Source: Elusimicrobiota bacterium
GTDB lineage: Bacteria > Elusimicrobiota > Elusimicrobia > UBA1565 > UBA9628
Assembly: GCA_016194705.1 (NCBI GenBank)
Contig: JACQAZ010000015.1
Location: 4,771-68,770, forward strand
Reading direction: 5' to 3'
Length of the DNA stretch: 64,000 bases
Part shown: piece by piece, positions 3,333 through 60,434 of the stretch
Layout of the letters: every line of letters begins with the position of its first letter
How positions within the stretch are numbered: position 1 is the first letter of the stretch
Notes under the pieces: model-generated
What the model was told of the DNA's origin: nothing
What the model saw: only the letters and a program-made list of their open reading frames with translations
The model's database searches: none
Program-made: the position numbers and the translations under genes

Positions 3333-4709
3333 CTAGGGCTTCGGGGGCTTCGGGATCACGAACTCCGAGCCCTCCTGGGGGAGTCCGCGCTCGACCTTGT
3401 CGCGGTTGGCGTCATAGATGAGCTCCCAGAGGTTGCCGTCGCCGTAGAAGGTCTTGGCCATCGAGCGCAGTGTCTCTCCGGGCTTGACCACGTGGCGCTG
3501 CGGCCACGACGGCTTCTTGGGCGGCGGAGGAGGGCGGATGATCGGCGGCGCGCGCTTGGGCGCCTTGCGCGCCGCTTCGTCGAGCTCGGACTCCTTGAGG
3601 CCGAACTCCGCCTCCTCCTTCTTTCTCTGCAGCCCGCGGTATTCCTCGCCGACCTCTTTGACCCTTTGCTCGAGCACGCCGAGCTCGGCCTCCGAAATCT
3701 GGCGGTGGGTCTCCGCGGTCGCGGCCTCCTCGTCGGCCGCCTTCTTGCGCTCGGCGAGCTTCTCGATCTCGGACTGCAGCGACTGGGCCGAGCTCGCCGC
3801 CGAGCCCACGAAGTTGCCCGTAAACGACGGCGCTCCGAAGCGCCAGCTGGCGCTCATCTGGAAGCCGCCCCCGGGCCGGTGGATTCCTCCCGAAGGCAAG
3901 GTCATCGCGAAATCCAGGACCAAGGGGGAGAGGTTGAAGCCGAGCCCCCAGGCGAACTGGCTGACCCCGTCGAGCTGGAAGCCGCGCCCGGCGCGGACCT
4001 TGAGCATGCCCTCGTAGAACGACGCCTCGACGCCCGGGTAGAAATCCGTCAAGTTCTGGCGGATCTTGGTGTCGGCCGCGATGGTGAGCCACTTGTGCCA
4101 GACATAGGCGAGGCCGAAATTGAACTTGGGGCGCGGCTGCCCGACGTTGGTGACGAGGTCGCTCATGACGGCCGAGCCGCTCAGCCCGAAATTGCTGCGC
4201 GCCAGCACGCCGAAGTCGAGCCCCATGCCGAACAGGCTCGAGCTCCCCGGATGGCCTTCGTTGATGTTGAGGAATTTCCAGTCTCCGCCGACCTTGAGCG
4301 GCTTGGTCAGCAGGAGCTGGGGGACCTTGATCTCCTGAGAATAGTTGAACCTCAGCTCGTCCTTGTCGCCCCCGTTGAGCTGGCGGATCGACATGTAGGC
4401 GCCGCCGACCGTGGCCGTGTTGATCAGCTCGAAGGGGCGCATGTAGGCCATCGCGGCGTAGGACATCGTCCCGACCGGCGAGAGCTGCCGCCCGACGCTG
4501 GCGCTGGCCTGCGCGTAAGGGGTGTTGGCGGGCCCCCCCGGGTTGAAGAACAAGGCGTAGGCGTCGTCGGCCACGGCCGAATAGGCCATGCCCATGCCCA
4601 TGGCCTTGGCGCCCGGCGCGAAGTCGTCGAAATCGGCGGCCGAACAGGGCCAAGCCGCGGCCAGCGGCAGGAAAGCGGCAAGCAGGCGCGCGAATCCTCT
4701 GAGGGTCAT
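3333..4709 (-). CDS. Outer-membrane β-barrel-like protein with a coiled-coil segment and C-terminal LysM domain
   Basis: Signal peptide MTLRGFARLLAAFLPLAAAWPCSAA (start chosen at the internal Met; the ORF track start is 4757). Gly/aromatic-rich β-strand region, then a charged coiled coil (EIEKLAERKKAADEEA...), then a C-terminal LysM-like segment VVKPGETLRSMAKTFYGDGNLWELIYDANRDKV. Confidence 0.6.
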   Translation of the reverse strand: MTLRGFARLLAAFLPLAAAWPCSAADFDDFAPGAKAMGMGMAYSAVADDAYALFFNPGGPANTPYAQASASVGRQLSPVGTMSYAAMAYMRPFELINTATVGGAYMSIRQLNGGDKDELRFNYSQEIKVPQLLLTKPLKVGGDWKFLNINEGHPGSSSLFGMGLDFGVLARSNFGLSGSAVMSDLVTNVGQPRPKFNFGLAYVWHKWLTIAADTKIRQNLTDFYPGVEASFYEGMLKVRAGRGFQLDGVSQFAWGLGFNLSPLVLDFAMTLPSGGIHRPGGGFQMSASWRFGAPSFTGNFVGSAASSAQSLQSEIEKLAERKKAADEEAATAETHRQISEAELGVLEQRVKEVGEEYRGLQRKKEEAEFGLKESELDEAARKAPKRAPPIIRPPPPPKKPSWPQRHVVKPGETLRSMAKTFYGDGNLWELIYDANRDKVERGLPQEGSEFVIPKPPKP

Positions 4710-10025: not shown

Positions 10026-10043
10026 TTGGCTGTTGCGCGGCCT

Positions 10044-10095
10044 GAAGAAGCCGGTCCCGCGCGCTGTACGCGCGGGGCCGGCTTCTTTCTTGCTA
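10044..10095 (+). terminator. Rho-independent terminator after the ferredoxin gene
   Basis: 20-bp stem GAAGAAGCCGGTCCCGCGCG / CGCGCGGGGCCGGCTTCTTT with a 5-nt loop, followed by a T-rich tract (TTCTTTCTT). Confidence 0.75.
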
Positions 10096-10097
10096 TC

Positions 10098-33241: not shown

Positions 33242-33315
33242 TCGGGGCGCCCGGGCTTGAACCGGGAACCTCCTGGTCCCAAACCAGGCGCTCTAGCCAA
33301 TTGAGCTACGCCCCG
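33242..33315 (-). tRNA. tRNA-Pro (anticodon TGG)
   Basis: Reverse complement folds as a cloverleaf: acceptor CGGGGCG/CGCCCCG, D-arm GCTCAATTGGCTAGAGC, anticodon arm CCTGG-TTTGGGA-CCAGG (anticodon TGG), T-arm CCCGG-TTCAAGC-CCGGG. CCA is not encoded. Confidence 0.85.
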
Positions 33316-33371
33316 ACCGAGGCTCCGTCGAGGATTATACCATTCGCGGGCGGAAATGATATCGTGAGCGC

Positions 33372-34566: not shown

Positions 34567-34573
34567 AAGGAAA

Positions 34574-34600
34574 GGCCCCGGCAGGGGGGCTGCCGGGGCC
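34574..34600. terminator. Bidirectional intrinsic terminator hairpin
   Basis: GGCCCCGGCAG-GGGG-CTGCCGGGGCC perfect 11-bp stem between convergent genes (OmpA-like + and Lon-like -). Confidence 0.6.
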
Positions 34601-34618
34601 TGTGGTTACGGCAATCTT

Positions 34619-37600
34619 TTAGTTCTTCGGCGCCAAAGCCGCGGTCCTGTAGGCCTCGCCTTCCGCCTTCATCTGAGCGCGCCACTGCTGGTCGGCTTGG
34701 TCGAGCTTCTCGAGCTCGCCCAAGAGCTTCTCCGTGTCGCCGGCGTATTTCTTCTCGAGGGCTTCCTTGGCGAGCTCGACGCCGCGCTCATGCCGGGCGT
34801 AGGCCTTGACCCTCCGATTGATCTCGGCGTAGGGAACGTAGCTGAAGATCTCCTGGGCCTGGCGGACGTTGTCGACCGCGAAGATCACGAAGCGCTTCTC
34901 TCGGATCGCCTGGATGATCTCGGGCTTGAGGGTCAGCTGCGAGACGTTCGAACGCGGAATGATGACGAAGGCGCGCTCGCGGATGTTCTCCTTGACCACG
35001 AGCTGCCCGTTGTGGTTGAGCAGGTCGAAAAGGCCCTCGATCTTGTAGTTGACGCCGCCGATGGCCTGGACGTTCTCGCCGAGCTGGTCGTCGGAGCCCG
35101 TCATGGCGCCGTCCTGGCGCAGGGCCAGGCCCGCCATGCTGAGTTCGCCCAGCGAGATCTTGACGCCCGTGGCCGAATCCCCGTCGAGCCCGCCGTAGGT
35201 CTGCTCGAAGGAGTACCGCTTGAGGATGTTCTCCACGAGCTTGCCGTAGGTCTTCTCGAAGTAGCCCTGGACGTTGGCGAAGGCCTTGTCCATGCTGTGG
35301 CCGGTCGATTTCGCCGCCTGATCGTTGGAGACGACGCCGCCGCCTTTCGAGGACTGCGATTCGACGAAGGTCACGCGCGCGGGAGCCCCGAAATCGCCCA
35401 TGACGACGAGGCCGTTGACCTCGTTGTACTTCATCCCCTTCGTGTTGATCACGAAGGTCCTCTTCTCGAGAAGCTCCATGTAGCGCTTTTGGCGCTGGCT
35501 CGTGCTGTCCTTGCGGTCGTCGAGCGCGGTCTGGACGTCCTCGCGCCTGACGTCCTTGCGGCCCGCGTTCTTGGCGACGCGGCTGGCCTCGCGCATGAGG
35601 TTGTAGATGCTGCCGAATTGGGCCGTGAACTTCTCGTTGCTCTCGGCCTCCGATGAGGCGTACTCGAGCACGGCGCCCATGGCGTCGCGGTTGAAGTCCA
35701 TCACCAGGCCCGCGCCCTTGACCGCCATCTTCTTCATGAACTGGACGTAGGCGGAGACGGTGTCGGGGTTGATGTCGAGCTCGTGGACGAACTCGGCCGC
35801 GGCGTTGAAGCCGCGCTGGAAGTCCTCTTCGTAGTGCAAGAGGAGCATCTTGATGTAGGGCGAGCCGATCAGCACGATCTTGGGCCGGTGAGCGACATGA
35901 TAGTTGCCGGTCATCGCGGCGAAGCCGAACATCCCCTGCACCTCGGGAATCTCGGCCTGGCCGGTGCGCACGAGCTCCATGACGGCGTGCCAGGCTCCGG
36001 GCTGGCGCAGGAGATCCATGACGTTCATCACGATCACGTCGGCCTCGAGGATCGAGCCGGTCTTGATCGTGGGACCCCCGGGACTCAGGGTCTTGAGCGC
36101 CACGCCGTTGATGATGCGCGTGTCGCGATTGGGCTCGACGAGACCGAAGAGCTTCTCCAAGGTCGGCTTGTCCTCGAAGACGACGCGCCAGCCCTTCGCG
36201 CCGTTGCTGGCGCGCAGGAGGTTGATGCGGTAGTGATCCAGCGGATCCTGCCTGCCGATCGTGCCCTCGTCGCGGGCTCCGGGCAGGAAAGACTCGAAGT
36301 CGGCGACCGCGTGCTTGAGCAGAGCCTGGGCGTAGCCCATGGCCTTCTTCTCTTCGTCGGTCGGGGCCGGGTCGTTGGCGTGCAGGGCCTTGTGCTCCTT
36401 GTCGAGCTCTTGAGACAAGACGCCGAATTTCTTGATCAACGGGGTGGCGGCCTTGATGACGTCCTTGATGAGGTCCTGCGAGAGCGCGCCCGACTGCTGC
36501 GCGGCCGCGAGTTCCTCGGGGGTCATGGGGACCATTTTGCCGTCGACTTCGTGCGAGATGCCGATGCTGCCGGTCTGCAGCGATCTCTCGTCGATCAGGA
36601 TGCCGTAGCCCCGGACCTTGACCGCCGCGATCTCGGCGAGGACGGCCTGTTGGCGCTGAGCCGCGCTCTTCTCCCAGGCCCTGTGCTCCAGGGTGTCGTG
36701 GCGGTTGGGCATCACGGAGGCGGCGACCTTGCGGCCGATTTGGGAGACCAGCATGCCTGCGATCTCCTGGTACATCTTCTGGTAGGCCACCATCTTCTCG
36801 GCGCGGTTCTCCGAGACCATCGCGCGGAAATCGTCCATGTAGGGCTCGGCCGCGGCCTTCGCCGCGCCCAGCGCCGCGTTCCACTCCTCCATCGTGAAGA
36901 CGCCCTTCTTGACGAGCTCCGCGAGTTCTTCCTCGGAGGCGGCCGTCTTCATAACGAGCTCTTTGCGGATCGCGCCGAATTTCTGGGCCAAGGGGGTGGC
37001 GGCCTTGACGAGCTCGGTGAGGACCTCCTCGGTCAGCTCGCCGGCCGCCTGCTTCTCGGCCATGACCTCCGGGGTCATCGGCACCGCCTTCCCGTCGACC
37101 TCGTGGGTCAGGGCGACGTTGCCCGCCTCATCGATCGAGATGCCGAAGCCTTTGACTTTGACGGCGGCGATCTCGGCGCGGACGGCGTCCAGCCGCGCTT
37201 TGAGCTCGGGGGACGCCTCCGAATAGGTCAAGGCCACTCCGAAATTGAAGTGCTCTCCGTCGCCGGCGTCCTCGGGACGAATCTTGATCCCGAACTTGCC
37301 GACGCGCTGCTGCGAGACCTCCGCCTCGAACTTGGCCTGGCGTTCCGCCGCCGATTTGGCGAGCTCCGCGTTGACGCCGCGCTTGAGCTCCTTGGCTTGG
37401 TCCGAATTGAGGGCCTGGGGGAACGCGGCCTGGTAGGTGCGCACGAATTCCTTGACCGCGCCGGCAAGCCTCGCCGCCGAGCCCGGGTTGAGCTTGAGGA
37501 AGATCGTCTTCTCCGGATCGTTGAAGTTGGTCGCCGCGACGAGGTCGGGCGACGACGGCATCTTCGGGGCGATTTCCGCGAGGATGGCCCTCAGCGCGGT

Positions 37601-38458
37601 CTCGCGCCCGGAGCCGTCCGCTCCCGAAATGTAAAGGTTGTAGTAGGGTCCCGCCATCTCGAGGCCCGCGCGGATCGACTTGAGGGCCTTGTCCTGGCCC
37701 ACGATGTCGACTCCTGAGAGTTCGACCTTGCGCGTGCTGTCGGGCAGCTGGTTGAGGTCGGGGGTGTAGCGGGCCTTGTCCACCGGCACGGCCAAGGACT
37801 CGACGTCCATCAGGGTTGTCTTGGACGCGGGCGGCGAGGCCTTGCCGTTGAGCCGCTTGCGCAGGAAATTGGGGATCAACTTGGAGCCCGAGAGCCGTTC
37901 CCAGACCGTCGCCGCCGCCGCCGGACCGGCGGCGTCGCCGCCGTCGTAGGTCTTTTCGAGAGCCGGTCCCATGCCGTTTCCGGCGGGTCCAGCGGCGACC
38001 GCGGCCGCCATGTTGAGGATGTTTTGCTTGGCCGTACCTTCCGGCAGCACCTCAGCCGCCGCGATCCACTGGGCGGCGTCCTGCTGTCCCGAGAGGGTCG
38101 TGGGCATGGTGATGCCCTTGGCCTGCATTTGGTTGAGGATCTCGATGACGGGGCGGGAGACCAGAGCCTGGCGTCCGGGTGCGTCGGCGCCCTGCGCGGG
38201 AACGGCCTGCGCGGCGGGATCGATCTGGACCAGCGTTCCGGCGTTGTTGAAGGCCGACGGGGCCGGCTCCATCGGGATGGTGATCGTGCCGAGATGCATG
38301 ACTCCCGGTTGGGCGATGTTGAAGACCGGCTGGGCTATCTTGATCCCCGCGGAGGTCTCGTTGAGGTTCGCCGCTAGCGCGGGACTCGGAAGGAAAATCG
38401 AAAGGGAGACGGCGGCGGCGAGAAATCGAGTTGCGGCGGCGCGCATGGAGGGGGTCAT
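34619..38458 (-). CDS. Secreted Lon-like S16-family peptidase (LonC-like, degenerate Walker A) with an internal tandem-duplicated ~85-aa module
   Basis: Start at MTPSM, preceded by AAGGAG with an 8-nt spacer. Signal peptide AATRFLAAAVSLSIFLPSPALA. Degenerate P-loop YISGADGSGRET. Lon protease-domain entry NEVNGLVVMGDFGAPARVTFVE, catalytic-Ser context DGDSATG and Lys context YKIEG. Duplicated segment AEIAAVKV(K/R)G(F/Y)GI…HEVDGK.VPMTPE…KAATPL..KFG. Confidence 0.75.
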   Translation of the reverse strand: MTPSMRAAATRFLAAAVSLSIFLPSPALAANLNETSAGIKIAQPVFNIAQPGVMHLGTITIPMEPAPSAFNNAGTLVQIDPAAQAVPAQGADAPGRQALVSRPVIEILNQMQAKGITMPTTLSGQQDAAQWIAAAEVLPEGTAKQNILNMAAAVAAGPAGNGMGPALEKTYDGGDAAGPAAAATVWERLSGSKLIPNFLRKRLNGKASPPASKTTLMDVESLAVPVDKARYTPDLNQLPDSTRKVELSGVDIVGQDKALKSIRAGLEMAGPYYNLYISGADGSGRETALRAILAEIAPKMPSSPDLVAATNFNDPEKTIFLKLNPGSAARLAGAVKEFVRTYQAAFPQALNSDQAKELKRGVNAELAKSAAERQAKFEAEVSQQRVGKFGIKIRPEDAGDGEHFNFGVALTYSEASPELKARLDAVRAEIAAVKVKGFGISIDEAGNVALTHEVDGKAVPMTPEVMAEKQAAGELTEEVLTELVKAATPLAQKFGAIRKELVMKTAASEEELAELVKKGVFTMEEWNAALGAAKAAAEPYMDDFRAMVSENRAEKMVAYQKMYQEIAGMLVSQIGRKVAASVMPNRHDTLEHRAWEKSAAQRQQAVLAEIAAVKVRGYGILIDERSLQTGSIGISHEVDGKMVPMTPEELAAAQQSGALSQDLIKDVIKAATPLIKKFGVLSQELDKEHKALHANDPAPTDEEKKAMGYAQALLKHAVADFESFLPGARDEGTIGRQDPLDHYRINLLRASNGAKGWRVVFEDKPTLEKLFGLVEPNRDTRIINGVALKTLSPGGPTIKTGSILEADVIVMNVMDLLRQPGAWHAVMELVRTGQAEIPEVQGMFGFAAMTGNYHVAHRPKIVLIGSPYIKMLLLHYEEDFQRGFNAAAEFVHELDINPDTVSAYVQFMKKMAVKGAGLVMDFNRDAMGAVLEYASSEAESNEKFTAQFGSIYNLMREASRVAKNAGRKDVRREDVQTALDDRKDSTSQRQKRYMELLEKRTFVINTKGMKYNEVNGLVVMGDFGAPARVTFVESQSSKGGGVVSNDQAAKSTGHSMDKAFANVQGYFEKTYGKLVENILKRYSFEQTYGGLDGDSATGVKISLGELSMAGLALRQDGAMTGSDDQLGENVQAIGGVNYKIEGLFDLLNHNGQLVVKENIRERAFVIIPRSNVSQLTLKPEIIQAIREKRFVIFAVDNVRQAQEIFSYVPYAEINRRVKAYARHERGVELAKEALEKKYAGDTEKLLGELEKLDQADQQWRAQMKAEGEAYRTAALAPKN
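36421..37200. repeat. Intragenic tandem duplication (two ~230-bp copies at 36421-36650 and 36973-37192)
   Basis: Copy alignment: cgccgaatttct.gg…ggtggcggccttga.gagct… / …ccgtcgac.tcgtg…atgccg.agcc…ttgac.gc.gcgatctcggcg.ggacggc. Encodes the repeated protein module of the Lon-like gene. Confidence 0.6.
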
Positions 38459-38619
38459 GCTCTGTCTCCTTAGATATCGATCGATGTCGTACAAGCTGAG
38501 GGTCCCATTATAAAGGAATGGGGCCTAGCACAAGAGGGCCATATGGGACCGCGATAGGAAGTAAAACGCCCTAGGTCCGGTTAGGACCTAGGGCCTATGA
38601 AAGGGCTGGGAAGTCCGGT

Positions 38620-39192
38620 TTAGTTGCTGCGGAAGACCACGGCAAGAGCGGTCGGATCCTCGTTGTTTGCGGCGTAAGCGTTGAGCTCGGAGGACTCGAT
38701 CTGGCCGCCGGGGATGAAGTAGAGCCCCCGCTGCGCGCCGACCTTGACCTCGCCGTCCTGGATCATCGCCTGGAACACGAGGCTGGGAAGCCCCACGTCC
38801 TGCGGGTCCAGGCCGACGGCCTTGGCGAAATCCTTCTCGGGGATGCGGCACTCGGCGACGACCGAGATGCCCTTGTTGTAGAGGAAGTTGACGTTGGCCA
38901 TCAGGGGCTGGCTGCCCTTGGCCTTGCAGGTGTAGCTCCAAGTCTTGCCGTCGCGCTTGACGATGTGCACGGTGAGCTTGGATTCCCGGGAGAGGGTCCG
39001 CCCGCCCTGGTCGAGGCCGAAATCGAAGTCGACCGAGTAGTTTCGCCAACCGTACTTATCGGCGAACTCGATGCGGTTCTGGGAGCCCAAAGGGGGCATG
39101 AAGTCCCCCGCGTCCTTGAGCTCGTACTTCTCCGCGAAGCTCGAGGCCGGCAGGAGCAAAAGCATGGCAAGCATGGACAGTCTCATGATCAT
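38620..39192 (-). CDS. Secreted hypothetical protein
   Basis: Start at MIMRLSMLAMLLLLPASSFA (signal peptide). 191 aa with no recognised domain. Confidence 0.55.
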   Translation of the reverse strand: MIMRLSMLAMLLLLPASSFAEKYELKDAGDFMPPLGSQNRIEFADKYGWRNYSVDFDFGLDQGGRTLSRESKLTVHIVKRDGKTWSYTCKAKGSQPLMANVNFLYNKGISVVAECRIPEKDFAKAVGLDPQDVGLPSLVFQAMIQDGEVKVGAQRGLYFIPGGQIESSELNAYAANNEDPTALAVVFRSN

Positions 39193-39316
39193 ACCCTCCA
39201 GACTCACATTGTACGCCGAATCCGGCTGCGCCGCAGGGGTCGTTGGGGTCCAGCGAAGCTGGGTCATAAGGCCTATGTCTCTCACACCCCCAGTTTAACC
39301 GGAGCGTGTTACAGGG

Positions 39317-42959: not shown

Positions 42960-45394
42960 GCCGCAAGGCCCGCGTCGTCATCATCGGCTCCGGCATCGCG
43001 GGCTCGTCCATCGCCTATCACCTGGCCGAGCTCGGCTGGAAGGACATACTCGTGCTCGAGCAGGGCGAGCCGGTCTCGGGCACGACCTCGCACGCGCCGG
43101 GCCTGGTCGGGCAGCTGCGCTCATCCGCGTCGCTGACCAAGATGCTCATGTACAGCGTCGCGCTCTACAAGAAGCTGCGCTACAGAAGCGAGCCCGGCTT
43201 CTTCCCGGTCGGCAGCCTGAGGCTCGCCTCCTCGCACGAGCGCCTCTTGGAGCTCAAGCGCCAGGAGAGCTTCGCCAAGACCGTCGGTCTCGAGGCGCGG
43301 CTGCTGAGCGCCGCGGAGGCGGCGAAGATGTTCCCGTTGATGGAATCCGAAGGCGTTCACGGGGCGCTCTACCTGCCCGGCGACGGCTCGGCGCGCGCGG
43401 TCATACTCGCCCAAGCGCTCGCGCAGGCGGCCAAGGACAAGGGCGTCGAGTTCCTCCCCTACGCCAAAGTCGTTTCGTTCGATATTCGCGACGGCCGCGT
43501 CGTGGGACTCAGCACGCCGCAGGAGGACATCCTCTGCGACCTGGTCGTCGCGGCCTCGGGGATCTGGTCCGCGCAGCTCGGCCGCCTGGCGGGCGTGCGC
43601 ATTCCCTTGATCCCGATGCAGCACCAGTACGCCGCCACGGCCCCCCTGCCCGAGCTCAAGGCCTTGGGCGCCCACACCCTGCCGAACCTCCGCGATCCCG
43701 ACAACTTGGTCTATTTCCGCCAGGACGGCGAGGGCCTGGTGCTCGGCGGCTACGAGCGGGACCCCGCCCCGTTCTATCACGAACGCGTCCCGGAAGGAGC
43801 CAACCCCACGGTCCTCGACTATACGCCCGCGCGCTTCGAGAGCCTCTGGGAGGGCTGCCTCAAGAGAGTGCCGCTGCTCAAGGGCGCCTCGCTCGTCAAA
43901 AAGGTCAACGGTCTCGAGTCCTTCACGCCCGACGGGGAGTTCATCCTCGGCCCGGCGCCGGAGCTCAAGGGCTTCTGGGCCGCCTGCGGGTTCTGCGCCC
44001 ACGGCGTCTCGGGCTCCGGCGGGGTGGGCAAGATGCTCGCCGAATGGATCGTCGAGGGCGAGCCGACTCTCGATCTGTGGCATATGGACATCAGACGCTT
44101 CGGAGGCTACGTCTCCAAGACGGGCTACATCGCCGCCCGCGCCTGCGAGGTCTACGCGACGTATTACGACATCGCCTATCCCAACCGCGAGAAAGAGAGC
44201 CAGCGCAAGCTGCGCTTGAGCCCCATGTACGGCCAGCTGTCCGCGCTGGACTGCGTCTTCGGCGAGAAGTCGGGCTGGGAGCGGCCCAACTGGTTCGCCT
44301 CGAACGAGGCGCGCGCCGACGAGGGGACCTCTCCGGTGCCGCGCGGCTGGGCGGCGAAGAACTGGTCGCCCGCCATCGGCGCGGAGCACAAGGCCTGCCG
44401 CGAGGCCGTCGCCCTGTTCGACGAGTCCTCGTTCTCGAAGCTCGAGGTCTCCGGAGCGGGCGCGCTGGCCTTCCTCCAGCGCCTGACCGACAACCAGATG
44501 GACAAGCCCGAGGGCTCGGTCACCTACACCCAGATGCTCAACGAGCGCGGCGGCATCGAGTGCGACCTGACCGTGACGAGGCTGGGGAAGAATCGGTTCC
44601 GGCTGATTACGGGCACGGCCTTCGGCGTGCACGACACGGCGTGGCTGCTCAAGCACAAGCCGGCCGACGGCTCGGTCGGCGTCAAGGACCTGACCGACGA
44701 GCTCTGCTGCCTTGGGGTCTGGGGACCGCGGGCGCGGGAACTCCTCCAAGGGGTGAGCCCCGACGACGTCTCGAACGAGGGCTTCCCTTATCTGAGCGCT
44801 CGCGAGATCAAGGCCGCGGGGCTCGCGGTGTTCGCCGTGCGCGTGACCTACGTCGGCGAGCTCGGCTGGGAGCTCTACGCGCCGGCCAAGGAAGGCGGAA
44901 AGCTCTGGCAAGCGCTTTGGGAGGCGGGCAATCCTTTGGGCGCCGCCGCGGCGGGCTACCGCGCGATCGATTCCCTGCGCCTCGAGAAAGGCTACCGCTA
45001 CTGGAGCGCCGACATCCACTCGGAGTATAACCCGTACGAGGCCGGTCTGGGCTTCTGCGTAAAGCTCGACAAGGGCGACTTCATCGGCAAGCCCGCATTG
45101 GAGACATTCAAGGCGCGGGGCCTGACGCGCAAGCTGTGCTGCCTGACCCTAGACGACCCCGCCGCCGTGGCCTTGGGCGGGGAGGCGATCGCGCATGCGG
45201 GCCGCGTCGTCGGGCGCGTGACGAGCGCCGGCTACGGCTACACGCTGGGCAAGAGCATCGCTTACGGCTATCTGCCGATCGCGCACACCGAGCCCGGAAC
45301 CAAGCTCGAAGTCGAGCTCTTCGGCGAGAGGATTCCGGCCGTCGTGTGCAAAGAGCCGCTTTACGACCCGCGCAACGCGCGCATCAAGTCCTGA
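42956..45394 (+). CDS. Dimethylglycine oxidase/dehydrogenase-like FAD oxidoreductase fused to a GcvT (aminomethyltransferase) folate-binding domain
   Basis: GTG start. FAD motif VVIIGSGIAGSSIAYHL. C-terminal GcvT-like region (…VTYVGELGWELY…). 813 aa. Confidence 0.8.
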   Translation: MSRKARVVIIGSGIAGSSIAYHLAELGWKDILVLEQGEPVSGTTSHAPGLVGQLRSSASLTKMLMYSVALYKKLRYRSEPGFFPVGSLRLASSHERLLELKRQESFAKTVGLEARLLSAAEAAKMFPLMESEGVHGALYLPGDGSARAVILAQALAQAAKDKGVEFLPYAKVVSFDIRDGRVVGLSTPQEDILCDLVVAASGIWSAQLGRLAGVRIPLIPMQHQYAATAPLPELKALGAHTLPNLRDPDNLVYFRQDGEGLVLGGYERDPAPFYHERVPEGANPTVLDYTPARFESLWEGCLKRVPLLKGASLVKKVNGLESFTPDGEFILGPAPELKGFWAACGFCAHGVSGSGGVGKMLAEWIVEGEPTLDLWHMDIRRFGGYVSKTGYIAARACEVYATYYDIAYPNREKESQRKLRLSPMYGQLSALDCVFGEKSGWERPNWFASNEARADEGTSPVPRGWAAKNWSPAIGAEHKACREAVALFDESSFSKLEVSGAGALAFLQRLTDNQMDKPEGSVTYTQMLNERGGIECDLTVTRLGKNRFRLITGTAFGVHDTAWLLKHKPADGSVGVKDLTDELCCLGVWGPRARELLQGVSPDDVSNEGFPYLSAREIKAAGLAVFAVRVTYVGELGWELYAPAKEGGKLWQALWEAGNPLGAAAAGYRAIDSLRLEKGYRYWSADIHSEYNPYEAGLGFCVKLDKGDFIGKPALETFKARGLTRKLCCLTLDDPAAVALGGEAIAHAGRVVGRVTSAGYGYTLGKSIAYGYLPIAHTEPGTKLEVELFGERIPAVVCKEPLYDPRNARIKS

Positions 45395-45695
45395 GAACCG
45401 TCCGTCCCTTGAGCACCGCCGCGGTCCCCTTCTCGATCGTCTTGAGCCGCTTCTCCAGCTCCTGAAGCCGTTTCCCCTTTCCCCTATTTGCCTCAAACGC
45501 GAGGAGGATGTCCGCCGTCGCTTCCAGAGCGTCCTGCATGGCCGAGAATCGCCCTGGCTCGACGAGGACGGCCACCGGTCTTCCGTGCTTCTCGAGGTTG
45601 ACCGGGGTCTCGCGCAGCTGCGCGATGATCTGGTCCATGCGCGTGCGCAGCTCCGAGACGGCGGCGAAGGCCGCGGGGTGACGGACGATCTTCAT
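45384..45695 (-). CDS. Phd/YefM-family antitoxin (no cognate toxin adjacent)
   Basis: 103 aa. N-terminus MKIVRH…VSELRTRMDQIIAQL…HGRPVAVLVEP is typical of YefM/Phd. The 3' end overlaps the convergent oxidase gene by 11 nt. Confidence 0.65.
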   Translation of the reverse strand: MKIVRHPAAFAAVSELRTRMDQIIAQLRETPVNLEKHGRPVAVLVEPGRFSAMQDALEATADILLAFEANRGKGKRLQELEKRLKTIEKGTAAVLKGRTVLRT

Positions 45696-45723
45696 GCCGA
45701 GAGTGTAGCAGGTCCGGCTTATT

Positions 45724-45754
45724 TTGTCAATAATTTAGTCAATATAATTGACAA
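45724..45754. promoter_or_regulatory. Inverted-repeat operator TTGTCAAT-N14-ATTGACAA upstream of the Phd/YefM gene
   Basis: Perfect 8-bp arms, with an additional direct copy TAGTCAAT in the spacer. AT-rich, 29 nt upstream of the antitoxin start. Confidence 0.5.
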
Positions 45755-46117
45755 ATTATATCCCCACGAGACGGTCCCTCAAGATGAGAGGTAAAATAGA
45801 GGAAAATGAGACCAAAAAAAGACCATCGCAAGGCGGAGAGGAGAAATGGAAAAGGACCGGAGAATCCCGGTCCGTATTCCGCCGGAAAAAAGACCCAGTC
45901 CGGCTTCCGGAACGGCCGGCCGGGATTCAGCGGACGAAGAGATCGAAACTCCGGCCGCGCTGGAGACGAAAGCCGGATCAAACAAGGGATCGGCAAAAAG
46001 ACCATGAAAGAGCCCCCGCGCGCCGGAAGGCCCGGCTGCGCCCGGGACGGGACCGCTGTCAGGGCTGCGAGGCCCTGAATTCATCCGGAGCAGCCCGCTT
46101 TCCGGGTCTCCGCGAGG

Positions 46118-48346
46118 CTAGCGCCGCTTCTTGCCGCCGGAGCCGATCTTCAACTTGAAGGTGAAGGTCGAGCCCATCGGCTGGGCCGTGGCCAGCGAAT
46201 GCAGGAGGTCCAGCGCGACGCCTTGGCCGATCCAGGCCAGGAACAGGTAAAAATCCGGGCTGATGCCCGCGAAGGCCCCGTAGAAATGGTAAGCCGTCAT
46301 GGTCAGCGCCGCGGAGAGTCCCGCTCCGATGGTCTGCAGCCAATACCCCGTCTTGCCGTTGGAATTCATCCCGCGGAAGAAGTTGAAATGGTGCGCCAGG
46401 AAGAAGAAGGTCGCCACCGGAAAGTTCAGCGCGAATCCCGCGTAGGCGATGCCCGCTCCGACGAGACCCGGCACGAAATACGCCGTCGAGGCCGCCGTGC
46501 CCCCGGCCGTGTCCGCGAAGTAGGCGGCCATCAAGAGCCCAGCGAAGATCATCGCGACCGGGTGCGCCGTGAGCAGGCCCGCGGCGATCACGGCCGCGAT
46601 CGAACCTAGAGCCGCGAGCATTCCCAACGGACTGATCCCGCGCGCCTTCTTGGTCTTGAGGAACAGCCCCGCGACCCAGCCCACGCCGTAGAGCGCCGAG
46701 GCCAAAATGAAAGAACCTGTCAAGACTGCCAAGACAGGATGCGCCTGGGCATAAGGCGTCGCCTGGTCGACGAAGGACGCCAGGGACGCAGTCGAGGGCA
46801 GCGCAAACACGGCCAATGCAGGAGCCCTCGACCTCGCCGCAGACGGCGTCCTTCCCTCGAGCCGCTTGAGCGAGTCGATCGCGGCCGCGTTGGGGCCCTT
46901 GAGCCCCGCGAGCAGGTCCGCCGCGAACTTGTTGTGCATCCAGACGCTCAACTGGTCGAGGTGGGTGTCCATGCCGTGGAAGTCCGCGCCGTTGCCGACG
47001 AGGAGGTTGTACTTCTCTGCCCAGACCAGATACTTGGCCGCCCGCTCGTCGGCGGCCCGCTTGCCGTTGCCGGAGGTCGCGTGGCTCGGGCGGTAGACCT
47101 CGATGCCGTCCATGCCCGATTCAAGCATGGCCTCTACATTCTCGTCCTTCTGCGCGTCGGTCTTACCGCGCACGGTGTACGGGTGGTTGAGGAAGGCCTT
47201 GCCGCCGGCCGCGTGGATGGCCTCGACGACTTCGTCGGGCGTCGGGTCGGAGGGCACGCCGGGCGTGTTGAGGATGTCGCCTTGCAGGTAAGTCTTGAAG
47301 GCCTCGTCGACCTCGCTGATCAGGCCGCGTTTGAGCAAGGCGCGGGCGATGTGGGGAATCTCGATGGTCCCCCCCGCATCATGCTGGGAGAAGGCCTTGA
47401 CCTCGTCGATGGTCATCGAGATGCCCTTCTCTTTGAACTCGTCGAGCGCGTTGAGGTTGTCGATGATGCCTTGAGCCTTCTGGTGGCGCATGATGCGCAC
47501 GCGCTCCAAGAGGGCGACGAGCTTGGCGTTGGTGACGTCGACGTCGATGGCGTTGATGTGCGCGCCGCCCTTGGCGGTCATCTCGACGCCGGTGTGGAAC
47601 TCGATGGGGTCGGCCGGGTTGGCCGCGTTGAGCTCTTGAACCTTCTTCCAGGCGCGCAGGACGCCGGCGGAGGTGTCGTGGTCGGTCAGAGCGATCACGC
47701 GCGCGCCCTTCTTGTAGGCCGCCTCGATGACTGCCTCCGGGGTCATCGTCCCGTCGGAGTAGATGCTGTGCAGATGCAAAGTGATCCGCTCGGTCCAATC
47801 CCGTGGATTGCCTTCCCGCGCGGAGGGCACGTACTGCGCCAGCCGTCCCGGGATGCGGAAGGGAGCCAGGGCCAGCGGGGCCGGGATGCCGTCATGATGG
47901 TAGCTCTCGAAATGGGCGTAGGCCTGGTCCTCGTCGTCGTGATGGATGTGGACCACCGAGAGCTTCGGCGTCCCGTCGTAGATCTCGCTGACGGCCTCGC
48001 TGCCCAGGATGGAATCCTCGATCCCGATCGCGGGCAGGTTCAGCTCATCGGCCTGCTCGAGCCCCGCGCGCGCCTGAGGGCCTTGCCGACGCGGCGCTGG
48101 AGGCGCGAGGGCGCCTTCCCCCGGCGTCAAAGACGCTTCGGGCGCGGCGGGAACGGCTGGGATCGCGGCTTCAACGAGAGGGCTCAGCCCGGGCTGGACG
48201 GGGACCTGGGGCAGACCCTTGCCGGCTTCGACGGGCGCGACGAGAGGCTTGACTTCGCCCAGAGGCTTGACGACGTCTCCGCCGAGGGCGGGAACGCTCA
48301 GGAGGATCGAAAGCCAGAGGAAGGGGAGGCCAGATCTGTTTATCAT
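46118..48346 (-). CDS. PHP-domain phosphoesterase with signal peptide and C-terminal polytopic membrane domain
   Basis: Signal peptide MINRSGLPFLWLSILLSVPALG. PHP motifs HLHSIYSDG and ALTDHDTSAG. The C-terminal ~260 aa contains multiple TM helices. Confidence 0.7.
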   Translation of the reverse strand: MINRSGLPFLWLSILLSVPALGGDVVKPLGEVKPLVAPVEAGKGLPQVPVQPGLSPLVEAAIPAVPAAPEASLTPGEGALAPPAPRRQGPQARAGLEQADELNLPAIGIEDSILGSEAVSEIYDGTPKLSVVHIHHDDEDQAYAHFESYHHDGIPAPLALAPFRIPGRLAQYVPSAREGNPRDWTERITLHLHSIYSDGTMTPEAVIEAAYKKGARVIALTDHDTSAGVLRAWKKVQELNAANPADPIEFHTGVEMTAKGGAHINAIDVDVTNAKLVALLERVRIMRHQKAQGIIDNLNALDEFKEKGISMTIDEVKAFSQHDAGGTIEIPHIARALLKRGLISEVDEAFKTYLQGDILNTPGVPSDPTPDEVVEAIHAAGGKAFLNHPYTVRGKTDAQKDENVEAMLESGMDGIEVYRPSHATSGNGKRAADERAAKYLVWAEKYNLLVGNGADFHGMDTHLDQLSVWMHNKFAADLLAGLKGPNAAAIDSLKRLEGRTPSAARSRAPALAVFALPSTASLASFVDQATPYAQAHPVLAVLTGSFILASALYGVGWVAGLFLKTKKARGISPLGMLAALGSIAAVIAAGLLTAHPVAMIFAGLLMAAYFADTAGGTAASTAYFVPGLVGAGIAYAGFALNFPVATFFFLAHHFNFFRGMNSNGKTGYWLQTIGAGLSAALTMTAYHFYGAFAGISPDFYLFLAWIGQGVALDLLHSLATAQPMGSTFTFKLKIGSGGKKRR

Positions 48347-48711
48347 TGCAGAGATCGTACTCCCATTCGGAACGGCGACATAGGGTCAAAGGGCGCAATC
48401 GGGCGCGAGCATGAGGCCCATCGTTTTTGGGCCCTTCGGTTCCGCCGCTGACGCGCGCTGACAGAGGCGGGCTTGCCCGCACGGCTCCCGCGCGCCATCA
48501 TAGTAATGACTCCCGCCGAGGAGTCGGAGGTCCTGTGCACCATCACATCTTCTGGCGGCTGGTGATCGCGGTCTTCCTCGCCCTCAACGCGATCCTCGCG
48601 TTGCGCTCGCACGACTCGAGCAAGCCGGGCACGATCCTTGCCGGCGCGGTCTCGTTCTCTTCGAGCCGTTGAAAGCGGCCGGCGCCGCTATGGTATACTC
48701 GCATCAGTTCC

Positions 48712-51449: not shown

Positions 51450-51603
51450 GGCGAGCTTCCCGGAGTATAACAAGTCTTTGTTACATTCACAAGTAGGCGG
51501 CCGTCGGTCCCATGGTCCCACTGCGGAGTAGTCCCAATGTGTCCCCCTTGTGGCCCTATGGACCTATAGGGTCTAGACCCAGCGGACGCTATAATGGAAC
51601 GCA

Positions 51604-53316
51604 ATGGAAAATATCACGCGCGACATCAGAAGCATCGCCGCTGTCTTGTTCTTCTTTTCACCGGCCGTCCCGTCCCGGGCCGTGGATTTCAACGCCGCAC
51701 CCAAGGGAGAGACCCGCGCGCTGCCGGCGCCCGCGCCGATCCCCCGCACGCTCGCCGGTTCGCTGGAGCTCAAGACCCAGGACCTCGCCGCGGGACTGCC
51801 GGCCGGGATCACTCTCGAGGACGGACAAAGGCTCGTGTCCCCCGGGACCGTGCCCCAAGCCGCGCCGGGCTCTGCGTCCGCGAGTCCGAGCGTGCCGCAA
51901 GCGCCCTCTCTCGGTGAGCCGATCGCGCCCGCACAAGCCGGCGCTCCCATCGCCGACGCCGACGTGCGCGGCAAGACGCTCCTGCTCGTCGGCACGCGCG
52001 GCTCGCGTCCCTTCATCATCGAGGAGGCCGTGCGCGTGGCCAACGAGCTCGGCTTGAACCTCGTGCTGCTCGACAAGGAGGAGAACCGGAAGAACTCCGA
52101 GTCCCTGGTCCCCGAGACCGATTTCTTCTCCGCGCCCATCGACCGCCGCGACGACAGGTCGATGAAGTCGATCGTCGCGCAGGTCCAGCAGCTCGCCTCC
52201 GAGCGCAAGATCGACTACGTCATGGCCTTCCGCAGCCACCACGCCAAGCTCGTCGGCAAGATCGTCGACGCGACCGGCATCTCGGGAGTCCCAGGGAAGG
52301 TGGCGCTCACCGCCGAGGACAAGGCCCGCACGCGCAAGGCCCTCAACGCCGCGCCCGACCAGTTCGTCCCCTACCGGGAGGTCAAGACCGCCGACGAGGT
52401 CCGCGAGTTCTACAGGCAATACGGCGGCTCGGGCAAGTTCGTCATGAAGTCCAAGCTCGGCGAGAACAGCCGCTTCGTGGAGCTCGACATCGATTCTGAG
52501 GAGAAGCTCGTTTCCGCATTCACCAAGATGGACGCGGCCCTGCGCGCCGAGGCGCGCAAGAAGGAGTCGAGCGACACGATCTTCAACCGCTTCCCCGGGA
52601 TCATGGTCGAGAAGATGCTGCAGAAGGCGCCGGGCACCGTCGAGGCCTCGGTCGAGATGGTCGTCCAGAACGGCAAGGTCAAGTTCGCCATGGTCTCCGA
52701 CACGCACGGCATCGGCCCCAAGGGCGAGCTCGCGGGCGGCAGCATGACCTTCCCCTCTCAGATGAGCGAGCCCGTCAGCCAGGCCCTGATCGCGGCCTCG
52801 GCCCGGGCCCTGGAGATCATCGGGCTGCGCAACGGCAACGCGCGCATCGACATCATGATGACGCCCGACGGCCCCAAAGTCATCGAGATCAACCCGTTCC
52901 TCGGGGGCGCGGCCATCTACACCGCGATCAAGCTCGTGACCGGGATCAGCCTCGTGGAATGGGGGATTCGCGCGACGCTCGGCCTGTCCCTGCCCGGCGG
53001 TCCCGCGCACAAGACGGTCGTCGACTACCGCTTCGCGGCCTCGCAGCACACGGGCTCCATCATCGCGCTCGAGGGCGTCGAGCAGGCCAAGGCCCTGCCG
53101 GGCGTGGCGCACGTCCAGCTGCTCGCCGGACGCGGCGATTCGGTCGCCGCCCCCATCGAGAACGGCTTCGAGGAGTGGGCCGAGGTCATGGGCACCGGAC
53201 CGACCTTCGAGGCGGCCCGGCGCGCGAGCATCGCGGCGCTGGCGAAGATCAAGGCGGTGGTCGTCGTCGACCAGACCGCCGATTACCTGCAGCCCAAGCC
53301 CGAGGAAAGGAAGTAG
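51604..53316 (+). CDS. ATP-grasp-fold enzyme with predicted signal peptide and Pro/Ala-rich linker
   Basis: Signal-like N-terminus MENITRDIRSIAAVLFFFSPAVPSRA. Pre-ATP-grasp plus ATP-grasp core (…IEINPFLGGA…). Confidence 0.7.
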   Translation: MENITRDIRSIAAVLFFFSPAVPSRAVDFNAAPKGETRALPAPAPIPRTLAGSLELKTQDLAAGLPAGITLEDGQRLVSPGTVPQAAPGSASASPSVPQAPSLGEPIAPAQAGAPIADADVRGKTLLLVGTRGSRPFIIEEAVRVANELGLNLVLLDKEENRKNSESLVPETDFFSAPIDRRDDRSMKSIVAQVQQLASERKIDYVMAFRSHHAKLVGKIVDATGISGVPGKVALTAEDKARTRKALNAAPDQFVPYREVKTADEVREFYRQYGGSGKFVMKSKLGENSRFVELDIDSEEKLVSAFTKMDAALRAEARKKESSDTIFNRFPGIMVEKMLQKAPGTVEASVEMVVQNGKVKFAMVSDTHGIGPKGELAGGSMTFPSQMSEPVSQALIAASARALEIIGLRNGNARIDIMMTPDGPKVIEINPFLGGAAIYTAIKLVTGISLVEWGIRATLGLSLPGGPAHKTVVDYRFAASQHTGSIIALEGVEQAKALPGVAHVQLLAGRGDSVAAPIENGFEEWAEVMGTGPTFEAARRASIAALAKIKAVVVVDQTADYLQPKPEERK

Positions 53317-58234: not shown

Positions 58235-60337
58235 CTATTTGTTCTGTGGAGGAGCGACGCGGCGCGAGAGCAGGAAATACCCGGCCGCGGTCAAGGTGCA
58301 GTAGATCCCGAGGCCGATAAAGGCCGCGGAGCCGAAGAGCTGGAACAGGATGCCCCAGACCATGAAGTTGACGACATAGGAAAGGTTGGTCAAGGTCCGG
58401 TCGGCGCCCACGACATAGGCCTTGGTCCTCTTGGGCATGCGGTCGAGCAGCAAGGTGTCGAGCTGGGTCAGCGCGACCTGGCCCGTGTAGCCGATCAGGA
58501 TCAAAGCAGGGGACACCGCGAAAAGCGGCCAGATCAGCCACGAGGCGACATGGGCCTTGGCGAGCAGCACTCCCCCGCCGATGGCGGCCAGCGCGATCCA
58601 TTTCAGCGACTTCAGAAGAGTCGTCTTGGACGCGAACTGGCCCTTGCGCCAAGCCCATATCCCGAGGGCGGCCAGTCCGACGAGTCCCGCGATGCCGATG
58701 AAGGGCGCGGCCGCCATGACGGGCCCGGCCACCGTGCCGATCGAGACCTGCGAGACGAACAGCCAGCCGCTCAGCATGGTGAGCGCCGCCCAGCGCAGGG
58801 CCTTGGCGGCGCTGGCCGACATGAGCTTGGACTGCGCCGCGGGCCGCTCCTTCTCGGGCAGGCTCTCGGTGCTCTCCTCGATGCTGCGCGAGACCGCCGC
58901 GTTGGTCAGCGCCGCCCCGTTGGCGCCCATCCCCAGCAAGCCGATCAATGCCGAGGCCGCGGCGGCCGCCATCCCCATGTTCCCGTGCGCGAAGAAGACG
59001 CCGAAGGCCGTGCCCGTGACGTAATAAAGCAGATAGACGAAGTTGTTGATCAGCAGGCGCGCGAGGAACAGAGGCCTCATCTCCGGCCGGAACAAGCGCT
59101 TGAAGCCGGCGAACAACGGAACCTTGCGCATGCGCCCCGAAAGCATCTGCGGCAGGCTGCGCAGGGCGAACGCGAGAGCCGCGGCCCCGGCGAACAAGAA
59201 GGGTGCGGCGTAGATCACGGCGCCGAAGCCCTTGGTCGCGATGAGCAGGCCCGTGATCATCGTCGTGAACACGGTGCCGTACTCGACGAAGTCGCGCAGC
59301 GTGCCGAAGCGGTTCGAGGCGACCGGGGAATCCTTGAACCACTCTCCCTGCAAAGTCCGTTCGGCCACGCGGCCCATCGAATGCACGAAATAGTCGAGGC
59401 TGAAAAGCGCGATCAGGGGCGCGATCGGCATCACGCCGTGGTGGGAGTGGAAGATGTAAGCGACGCCGGCCCAGATGAACGCGCGAGAGGCCAGCACGGT
59501 CCGGTAGACCCGGGCCAGCCCGACGCGCTGCACGAGCCGCCCGCCGAGGAAGCTGCCGATCGCGTAGGCGAGGTAGCTCGTCGAGGCCAGGCCCGCCAGC
59601 GCGATGAAGCCGTTCTTGAGCGGGTCCGTCATTTGAGGGACCGCAAGGGCCAGCGATTCGACGGCGAGTTGGATCAACAGGAAGGTCGAGAAGAAGCCCA
59701 AGACCTTGCCGGACAGGACCGAGAGCTGCTCTTTCTTCGAGGGAGCGGGAGGCCCCTTCGGGTCCTCGGCTGGAGCCCGGCTTGCCTTCTCAAGCGACGG
59801 CGCCGCGGCGACGCCGCCGGTAATCTCGGCCGGCCCGGATTTGCGCACGAACCCGCGCTCTTCGGCGTGCTCCCAGACGCGCTCCTCGAGTCCGCCCTTG
59901 TTCTCGCGTCCCAACCCGCCGAATTCGCCTTTCCCGGCGGGTAGAGCCTCTGTCAGGCCCGCGGCTCCGGGAGTCTCAAGGCCCGGAGCGATGCCCTCCG
60001 GAGAGGCTCCCGGGACGACGGGGGCTCCGATCTGGACCCCCGCGGGATTGACGAGCGCGGTCGGAAGGGGCGTCTGCTGCGACGCTGGACCGCTCGTCGG
60101 CGCTTCGCTCCCGGGCACCGCGAGGGTCCCGCCGACCCCGGCCGTCGCGAGAGGATCGAGGTTCGTCGCGCCGAGCTCGACGCGCGGGAGCCCTCCGGCG
60201 GGATTGGCGGGCGCGGGGCGTGGCGCCGCCGAAGGGGCTGGGGCCGGCTTCTCGACGAGGCCCCCGCCGGCGAGCGCGGGCTCAGCGGCCAAAGCCAGGC
60301 TCAGCAGAGCTGCCAGCGCGCGGCTAAGAATCCTCAC
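58235..60337 (-). CDS. MFS transporter with ~230-aa Pro/Ala-rich N-terminal extension
   Basis: Twelve TM helices in the C-terminal 470 aa. N-terminus carries a signal-like segment and a PA-rich low-complexity region. Confidence 0.7.
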   Translation of the reverse strand: MRILSRALAALLSLALAAEPALAGGGLVEKPAPAPSAAPRPAPANPAGGLPRVELGATNLDPLATAGVGGTLAVPGSEAPTSGPASQQTPLPTALVNPAGVQIGAPVVPGASPEGIAPGLETPGAAGLTEALPAGKGEFGGLGRENKGGLEERVWEHAEERGFVRKSGPAEITGGVAAAPSLEKASRAPAEDPKGPPAPSKKEQLSVLSGKVLGFFSTFLLIQLAVESLALAVPQMTDPLKNGFIALAGLASTSYLAYAIGSFLGGRLVQRVGLARVYRTVLASRAFIWAGVAYIFHSHHGVMPIAPLIALFSLDYFVHSMGRVAERTLQGEWFKDSPVASNRFGTLRDFVEYGTVFTTMITGLLIATKGFGAVIYAAPFLFAGAAALAFALRSLPQMLSGRMRKVPLFAGFKRLFRPEMRPLFLARLLINNFVYLLYYVTGTAFGVFFAHGNMGMAAAAASALIGLLGMGANGAALTNAAVSRSIEESTESLPEKERPAAQSKLMSASAAKALRWAALTMLSGWLFVSQVSIGTVAGPVMAAAPFIGIAGLVGLAALGIWAWRKGQFASKTTLLKSLKWIALAAIGGGVLLAKAHVASWLIWPLFAVSPALILIGYTGQVALTQLDTLLLDRMPKRTKAYVVGADRTLTNLSYVVNFMVWGILFQLFGSAAFIGLGIYCTLTAAGYFLLSRRVAPPQNK

Positions 60338-60434
60338 GAATAGATTCTATCGCACCGGGAGACGGCCGAAGTGGGTCCTTCGACTGCACAGGAGGGAGTC
60401 AATGGGCCCGCGCCGACGGTCCCCTTCGTCCTAC

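Follow-up and report, generated by a model that had tools for sequence, protein, structure and literature searches.

Promoters of the canonical sigma-70 type combine a TTGACA and a TATAAT hexamer at a distance of 17 nt, and the known holoenzymes of the sigma-70 family work with spacers of about 13-19 nt. In class II activator-dependent promoters, a strong -10 without a usable -35 is paired with an activator site at a fixed distance, as in the FNR/CRP sites centred near -41.5 and in the promoters of PhoB, where pho boxes replace the -35. For the phylum Elusimicrobia, which is known almost entirely from metagenomes, a full-text literature search turned up no work that deals with promoters or transcription start sites.

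In a 64-kb stretch of an Elusimicrobiota contig (the whole of the DNA analyzed, referred to as the window; G+C content 65.8%), the promoter of a Lon-like gene shares its -10 consensus with the canonical type, but has a C-rich element 22 nt upstream of the -10 and no TTGACA at 16-18 nt. It resembles class II promoters in its strong -10, the lack of a usable -35, and a conserved, protein-sized element at a fixed distance, which borders on the -35 position and is predicted to be centred at about -42, and also in that one element is found across a functionally coherent gene set. Unlike class II activator sites, whose repeat period is to our knowledge 10-11 bp, this box has a period of 8-9 bp, and it ends 22 nt from the -10, compared with about 10 nt for the pho box. 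Its form, CCC-N5-6-CCC[A/T], matches no CRP/FNR, PhoB, OmpR, CpxR, or PhoP site that we know of.

For comparison, we used a total of about 220 kb of DNA from about a dozen related genomes, much of it retrieved through orthologs of the genes of interest. Scans of genomes and metagenomes with the Lon-like protein gave one locus each, and most comparative loci came from exact-protein look-ups. Gene calls, as well as the rule for signal peptides, were home-made.

The Lon-like promoter and its C-rich box

The region in question (R1, 38459-38619, 161 bp) is the gap on the minus strand between the stop codon of geneB (TAA, 38620-38622), a small secreted-protein gene without a Pfam match, and the start of the Lon-like gene (34619-38458, minus strand). 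The latter encodes a protein of 1279 aa with a signal peptide and LonB-type AAA domains, whose only Pfam matches are AAA_32 and LonB_AAA-LID, while its distant homologs also match Lon_C. A signal peptide is unusual for an ATP-dependent protease, and the protein also contains an internal duplication of about 180 aa (DNA 36537-36646 vs. 37089-37186). The start codon (ATG, 38456-38458) is preceded by a Shine-Dalgarno sequence (GGAG, 38466-38469), and the longer AAGGAG is invariant in the alignment of close orthologs. These close orthologs are loci L001, L002, L003, L004, and L010 (59-73% protein identity) together with an identical copy, L005; two distant homologs, L012 and L013, share 34-38% protein identity.

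Read on the minus strand, R1 runs from the TAA of geneB through 25 nt to a stem-loop (GCCCTAGGTCC/TAACC/GGACCTAGGGC), then GTTTTACTTCC, tatcgc, and GGTCCCATATGGCCCT, followed by 22 nt, the -10 hexamer TATAAT, 37 nt, GGAG, 7 nt, and the ATG. An earlier note on this DNA had described a family of short palindromes in R1 and in a second region (R2, 51450-51603), which lies between a divergent FecR-domain gene on the minus strand and an ATP-grasp gene (51604-53316, plus strand) with an L-amino-acid-ligase-like product. The strings that it quoted are in place (GGGTCCCATTATAAAGGAATGGGGCC at 38500-38525, GGGCCATATGGGACC at 38536-38550, the hairpin at 38569-38593, and similar units at 51505-51580). Its description of both as intergenic promoter regions carrying the same motif family is borne out by the counts of box clusters and of GGNCC(Y)WW given below, which exceed chance.

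The -10 of the Lon-like promoter (TATAAT, 38507-38512) is invariant in all eight orthologs. Upstream of it lies a C-rich dyad, GGTCCCatatGGCCCT (38535-38550), which reads GGTCCC-atat-GGCCCT on the minus strand, with 22 nt between its proximal half, GGCCCT (38535-38540), and the -10. In the element at large, the two CCC runs are 8-9 bp apart, less than one turn of the helix, and the distal half varies. Among the six close orthologs (59-100% protein identity), G-CCC-N4-GGCCCT is invariant. The distance from box to -10 is 22 nt in all R1 orthologs, while the sequence of the spacer (38513-38534) is free and the other flanks diverge as well. At the same distance, and again with TATAAT, the distant homologs have GCCCCA (L013) and a degenerate GGCACCA (L012), so that box and spacing are kept in seven orthologous loci, with a degenerate box in the eighth.

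Neither a consensus scan nor the alignment revealed a TTGACA-like -35 at 16-18 nt from the -10 of R1. The hexamers there (TCTTGT, TAATGC, and others) show no conservation, and as none of them is like TTGACA, the scan calls no canonical promoter in R1. Two of the quoted units, GGCCCCAT within the spacer (38519-38526) and GGGACCC (38500-38506), which flank the -10, are conserved in no ortholog. The 16-mer of R1 is unique, and a fixed-spacing matrix built from the R1 orthologs recovers these orthologs only, with no other strong intergenic site; the wider family becomes visible only as a half-site with its spacing.

Recurrence of the box at other promoters

We measured the distance from GNCCC[A/T] to any TAnnnT in about 13 kb of intergenic DNA from the window and the related loci. 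At 22 nt there were 16 cases, or 17 after addition of L014, with about 0.5 expected; this count is inflated by purposely retrieved orthologs, as seven of the 16 cases are Lon-like loci, and counted by families the peak is six. The distribution is sharp (3/17/1 at 21/22/23 nt). All other distances between 8 and 30 nt have 0-3 cases each, and the six cases at 31 nt probably reflect the distal CCC run. In 1000 Markov simulations, bins averaged 0.52 cases and none held more than 6. No spacing peak was seen with GNGGYW or GNCCRW as control patterns. The full pattern GNCCC[AT]-N22-TAnnnT occurs 17 times in 13.5 kb of intergenic DNA vs. three times in 218 kb of coding DNA, a set 16 times larger. In the window alone, three cases were observed at 22 nt vs. 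0.13 expected (P = 0.009 for any bin reaching 3); the pattern search gave five matches in the window vs. 0.79 expected from shuffled sequence, three of the five in promoters and two in coding DNA, the latter at chance level. Equal frequency in coding regions, which the earlier note had named as the mark of a compositional artefact, is thus not what we found: the motif is strongly enriched outside coding DNA. The functional unit, however, differs from the GGNCC/CCTAGG-type palindrome that had been proposed, being instead a directional GNCCC[A/T] box located 22 nt upstream of the -10.

Distances from TTGnnn to TAnnnT in intergenic DNA peak at 17 nt with 24 cases (7/24/7 at 16/17/18 nt), indicating that the organism uses ordinary sigma-70-type promoters too; TATAAT, TATACT, and TTGACA are the most enriched words in the intergenic DNA of the window. 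A second peak of the same measure appears at 24 nt in the intergenic DNA of the window and related loci, because boxes that read TTGACCCT or TTGGCCCT look like a -35 displaced by 7 nt. Two further promoter regions of the window may be mentioned here. Ahead of a Phd/YefM antitoxin gene on the minus strand (45384-45695), an AT-rich palindromic stretch at 45720-45770 (TTGTCAATAATTTAGTCAATATAATTGACAAATTATA) has overlapping TTGACA and TATAAT on both strands, an arrangement also seen in L001 and L006; this stretch probably serves as the operator through which a toxin-antitoxin pair regulates itself. The tRNA gene at 33242-33315 (minus strand) has an extended -10, TGGTATAAT (33334-33342), and no obvious -35, as do its counterparts in L001 and L003.

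The exact 22-nt architecture is found at six non-homologous gene families, namely the Lon-like, geneB, PHP-domain, and MFS families, a 121-aa protein (L003), and a protein of about 300 aa (L007, L009). There are three more near-members, and two near-misses have a spacing of 21 nt. In most members, another CCC run lies 8-9 nt further upstream, so that the box reads CCC-N5-6-CCC[A/T], and the orientation of the box relative to transcription is always the same.

The geneB promoter (39208-39275, minus strand) consists of a distal box, ATAGGCCTTATGACCCAGC (39257-39275), a dyad, GACCCCaacgACCCCT (39235-39250), a 21-nt spacer, and the -10 TACAAT (39208-39213), followed by the probable true ATG at 39186; in L002 and L003, the geneB promoters read ATCCCCaatGCCCCT-N22-TATAAT. 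The publicly annotated geneB product (215-221 aa) is probably mis-started, since its N-terminal extension (39187-39285, minus strand) contains this promoter and aligns with intergenic DNA of L002, L003, and L010; the signal peptide starts at ATG 39186. The promoter of the PHP-domain gene (48354-48396, minus strand) has GCGCCCtttGACCCT (48382-48396), a 22-nt spacer, and the -10 TACGAT (48354-48359), which is separated from the ATG at 48346 by 7 nt, so the transcript would be leaderless. Its orthologs in L006, L010, and L014 keep the box and the 22 nt (four genomes including the window), with unrelated spacer sequences. Similarly, the promoter of the MFS gene (60344-60377, minus strand) consists of GACCCA (60372-60377), a 22-nt spacer, and the -10 TAGAAT (60344-60349), located 6 nt from a GTG at 60337, again apparently leaderless. 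The corresponding promoter in L014 is a degenerate GGCCttttGCCTCT-N22-TACAAT-6-GTG, and there, too, the gene is likely mis-started, with a TTG called and the GTG 6 nt past TACAAT the likelier start.

In several members, only 6-8 nt separate the -10 from the ATG or GTG, which likely fixes the transcription start site and would place the box at about -40 to -35 and the dyad at about -50 to -35. More generally, -10-like hexamers located 6-9 nt before a start without a Shine-Dalgarno sequence were seen at 4709 (-), 4796 (+), 13502 (+), 27843 (+), 48346 (-), 51604 (+), and 60337 (-); with so many such starts, leaderless or near-leaderless mRNAs seem common in this lineage.

R2 fits this scheme less closely. 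The ATP-grasp promoter (51506-51595, plus strand) has three boxes, A (GGTCCCATGGTCCCAC, 51506-51521), B (GGAGTAGTCCCAATG, 51525-51539), and C (GGCCCTATGGACCTA, 51552-51566), followed after 23 nt by a perfect TATAAT (51590-51595), which lies 8 nt before the ATG at 51604, so the gene is effectively leaderless. These three boxes, GTAGTCCCttGGTCCCAC, GTAGTCCCAATG, and the proximal GGACCTA, are kept in L006, L010, and L014 and partly in L011 and L012, and they travel with the ATP-grasp gene even without FecR (L010, L014). Instead of GNCCC[A/T], the proximal box reads GACCTA, and among orthologs it lies 21-23 nt from the -10. R2 is a loose member that uses the same vocabulary and has a degenerate version of the element. 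By spacing, R1 is matched more clearly by the promoters at 48354-48396, 60344-60377, and 39208-39250, none of which the earlier note had listed.

The link between R1 and R2 is supported by clustering: at least four same-strand GNCCC[AT] within 60 nt occur only in R1, R2, and an R2 ortholog (222 kb searched). In counts of GGNCC(Y)WW, a pattern defined only after both regions had been seen, R1 ranks first (11) and R2 second (5) among the 160-nt segments of the 64 kb, with a mean of 0.59. Generic k-mer sharing did not single out R2 as the closest relative of R1, the top match being chance scatter in a coding region. A looser pattern, GG-N-C..TATG..CC, was set aside as too degenerate, with many coding matches. 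Two other ideas were also discarded: a role of GGNCC in methylation or restriction, because GGNCC is neither depleted nor specific, and a G-quadruplex or i-motif, for which the two conserved C-runs are too few.

The products of the box-bearing genes appear to be exported. Signal-peptide-like N-termini were found in all nine box families (six strict and three near, including the ATP-grasp gene), as judged by a crude home-made rule with a background of 33-43%, while genes behind canonical promoters are mixed in this respect. This agrees with the guess in the earlier note that the downstream genes encode secreted proteins. Its proposal of a regulon motif holds in part, in that unrelated genes have the element in front of them and orthologs keep it, while R2, one of the two regions on which the proposal was based, fits only loosely.

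Gene order also connects these families. In distant relatives, the Lon-like, ATP-grasp, MFS, and PHP genes are joined by conserved adjacency or by fusion. The window has separate ATP-grasp and MFS genes, and in relatives the two are fused into a protein of about 1000 aa (L012 1-2246; L013 88-3258), with the window MFS gene (58235-60337, minus strand) homologous to the MFS half. In distant relatives, the fusion gene adjoins a cluster of SpoU, geneB, Lon-like, and OmpA genes, and the fusion together with this cluster suggests one functional system. In L014, the MFS, ATP-grasp, amidohydrolase, and PHP genes lie side by side.

Activator site or core promoter element

In the interpretation that we consider fairly probable, R1 consists of the geneB terminator followed by a promoter with a shared, position-locked element that is likely an activator site and that serves a set of genes for exported proteins. 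The Lon-like gene would be transcribed from its own promoter, with a perfect -10 and no TTGACA-like -35. The C-rich dyad, whose 3' end lies 22 nt upstream of the -10, would replace the -35 and occupy about -50 to -35 relative to the start. The box, immediately ahead of the usual -35 position, may be bound on one side of the helix by a single activator, which would recruit RNA polymerase to promoters whose only strong element is the -10, as class II activators do. The shared box would then define a regulon of exported and envelope proteins. What we observe directly is the layout of R1, its conservation, the exact spacing and its recurrence at other genes, the preference for intergenic DNA, and the association with signal peptides, whereas it is by inference that we speak of where transcription starts and ends, and of a factor that binds the box and its nature.

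The main alternative is that the C-rich box is a core promoter element read by the polymerase, through an alternative sigma factor or a lineage-specific contact, with no separate activator. So sharp a spacing and so constant an orientation would be explained just as well by a holoenzyme that contacts the box directly: the canonical TTGnnn peak is no tighter than the distribution of 3/17/1 at 21/22/23 nt, only one orientation of the box is found, and several boxes (TTGACCCT, TTGGCCCT) resemble a displaced TTGACA. In addition, 8-9 bp between the CCC runs and a variable distal half would be unusual for a dimeric activator, and envelope regulons are often controlled by sigma factors. On the other hand, the -10 hexamers are housekeeping-like (TATAAT, TAGAAT), a spacing of 22 nt puts the box half a turn further than sigma region 4 extends, the box loci have no linked sigma gene, and the sigma-54 pattern (GG-N10-GC) does not fit by eye. 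We favour an activator because the -10 is of the housekeeping type and 22 nt exceeds the usual reach of sigma region 4, and recognition by the polymerase itself is in our view possible but rather unlikely. The same tentative standing is given to its more specific form, in which the box marks a second, dedicated promoter class, read by a lineage-specific sigma or a polymerase-bound factor and used mainly for secreted and envelope proteins.

Known sigma factors were considered individually. For sigma-54 (TGGCAC-N5-TTGC), the gaps from GG to GC are 7, 9, or 11 nt rather than 10, PHP-type boxes have no GG, and the leaderless members imply a start about 35 nt downstream of the box instead of about 12 nt. 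The heat-shock sigma-32 pattern (CCCTTGAA / CCCCAT) has the wrong spacing, and the GGCCCCAT unit is not conserved. An ECF sigma, suggested by the FecR neighbour, was rejected because of the TATAAT-like -10 and because the boxes go with the ATP-grasp gene rather than with FecR.

A regulator gene consistently adjacent to the box-bearing loci was not found in the window or the related loci. PAS histidine kinases and single-domain response regulators adjoin the ATP-grasp/MFS genes in L008 (5987-9754) and L014 (507-3452) and are absent in the window; none of the response regulators in these two loci has a recognisable DNA-binding domain on record.

The hairpin downstream of geneB and the remaining alternatives

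The perfect palindrome of R1 belongs, in our reading, to the upstream gene. The stem-loop GCCCTAGGTCC-TAACC-GGACCTAGGGC (38568-38594, minus strand; in plus-strand letters CCCTAGGTCC/GGTTA/GGACCTAGGG, 38569-38593) begins about 25 nt past the geneB TAA. It has a loop of 5 nt and a stem of 11 pairs, with 38568/38594 included, of which eight are G-C. It passes a consensus terminator scan, and in the window sequence it folds at -24 kcal/mol with z = -5.2. Directly 3' of it is a T-rich tail, GTTTTACTTC (38558-38567), which meets the threshold of the scan (at least five T in eight), although the tract itself is short (GTTTTAC). Similar hairpins occur at other gene ends in the window, e.g., 10026-10097 and 34567-34618. 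Like rho-independent terminators, R1 thus has a GC-rich 11-bp stem with a 5-nt loop after a stop codon and then a T-rich tail; it differs from them in the shortness of its T tract and in that the arms are conserved more than the pairing in several orthologs. Judged from these features, the hairpin with its GTTTTAC tail looks like the intrinsic terminator of geneB, at which the geneB transcript would end. This palindrome, which had been put forward as one of a motif family shared with R2, is on the grounds of scan and fold best read in this way.

The unusual conservation of the arms bears on another explanation, namely that the hairpin and the TAGGNCCTA sites are DNA operators of a dimeric regulator of the Lon-like gene rather than an RNA terminator. 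In the alignment of close orthologs, the hairpin region is among the conserved blocks of R1 (TAGG-CC-T and GCGTTTTAC), with GCGTTTTAC or CCGTTTTAC kept in five of the six, and arms of the TAGGNCC/GGNCCTA type can be recognized by eye in most orthologs, including L012 and L013, with varying stem strength. The TAGG-N-CC(TA) arms are kept even where the RNA hairpin is weak (z 0 to -1.9 in L001-L004): the predicted fold is stable in the window and in L010, whereas L001 is intermediate and L002-L004 have weak folds (z 0 to -0.9). The arm sequence TAGGNCC is conserved beyond the need of a pure terminator. TAGGNCCTA occurs twice in the window, both times in R1 (0.09 expected), and similar TAGGNCC units are found in other intergenic regions (L006 11792-11860, L011 9658-9767). 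Across about 200 kb (window and related loci), 53% of TAGGNCC sites are intergenic vs. 5.5% expected, more than for TAGG alone (18%) or TA alone (16%). Once the R1 and R2 orthologs are removed, however, the intergenic enrichment falls to about 4-fold, close to that of TAGG alone. An operator is also at odds with the position of the element directly past a stop codon and before a T-rich tail, with its passing the terminator scan, with a compensatory G-C to C-G swap in the stem between the window and L010, and with a loop whose length differs among the orthologs (2 to at least 8 nt by eye), unusually for an operator. RNAalifold on the orthologs gave nine pairs and no double-sided change. Taken together, we regard operators at this position as improbable, and retain the terminator as the preferred reading of the hairpin.

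Much weaker is the explanation that the resemblance between the regions is a by-product of base composition, with GC-rich filler and AT-rich promoter pieces picked by eye. It would agree with the commonness of GGNCC (591 in the window, only a 1.5-fold intergenic enrichment), with k-mer sharing that shows no link between R1 and R2, with the several quoted units that are not conserved, and with most other intergenic regions of the window, which are without the units. Against it, the exact 22-nt peak is absent from shuffles, coding DNA, and control patterns, homologs with as little as 34% protein identity keep box and spacing, and the 22 nt recurs at six non-homologous families, with all nine strict and near families exported, so that we give composition very little credence.

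Just as implausible is a small mobile repeat such as a REP/REPIN or MITE element, which the earlier note had offered as its second possibility: R1 does have a short GC-rich intergenic palindrome just downstream of a stop codon, as REP/REPIN elements do, and its TAGGCC-like strings resemble the GTAG heads that REP elements have in E. coli, but it lacks a multi-copy family (no repeat of at least 16 nt in the 64-kb window joins R1 and R2 or includes either, and other TAGGNCC sites share no longer element), the hairpin keeps its orthologous position across genomes of deep divergence, and the box-to-(-10) spacing would be left without explanation. Rfam gave no match in or near R1 or R2 even at E-values up to 1, and window-wide only a tRNA.

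With the activator reading as the preferred one, the element common to this lineage can be written as CCC-N5-6-CCC[A/T]-N22-TAnnnT and looks like an undescribed regulatory signal. A position-locked element of this kind, tied to exported proteins, would make it easier to predict a regulon, along with the start sites of its genes, and would also give better gene starts, as geneB and one MFS gene appear to be mis-started because their promoters were read as coding sequence. It would further establish a functional link between the Lon-like protease, a small secreted protein, a PHP-domain protein, and the ATP-grasp/MFS pair, whose genes are conserved neighbours as well. If it is the polymerase itself that reads the box at 22 nt, this would widen the known range of bacterial promoter geometries; a dedicated promoter class, if true, would have a geometry not described for the sigma-70 family, and its users would include a signal-peptide-bearing Lon-like protease and a split ATP-grasp ligase/MFS system.
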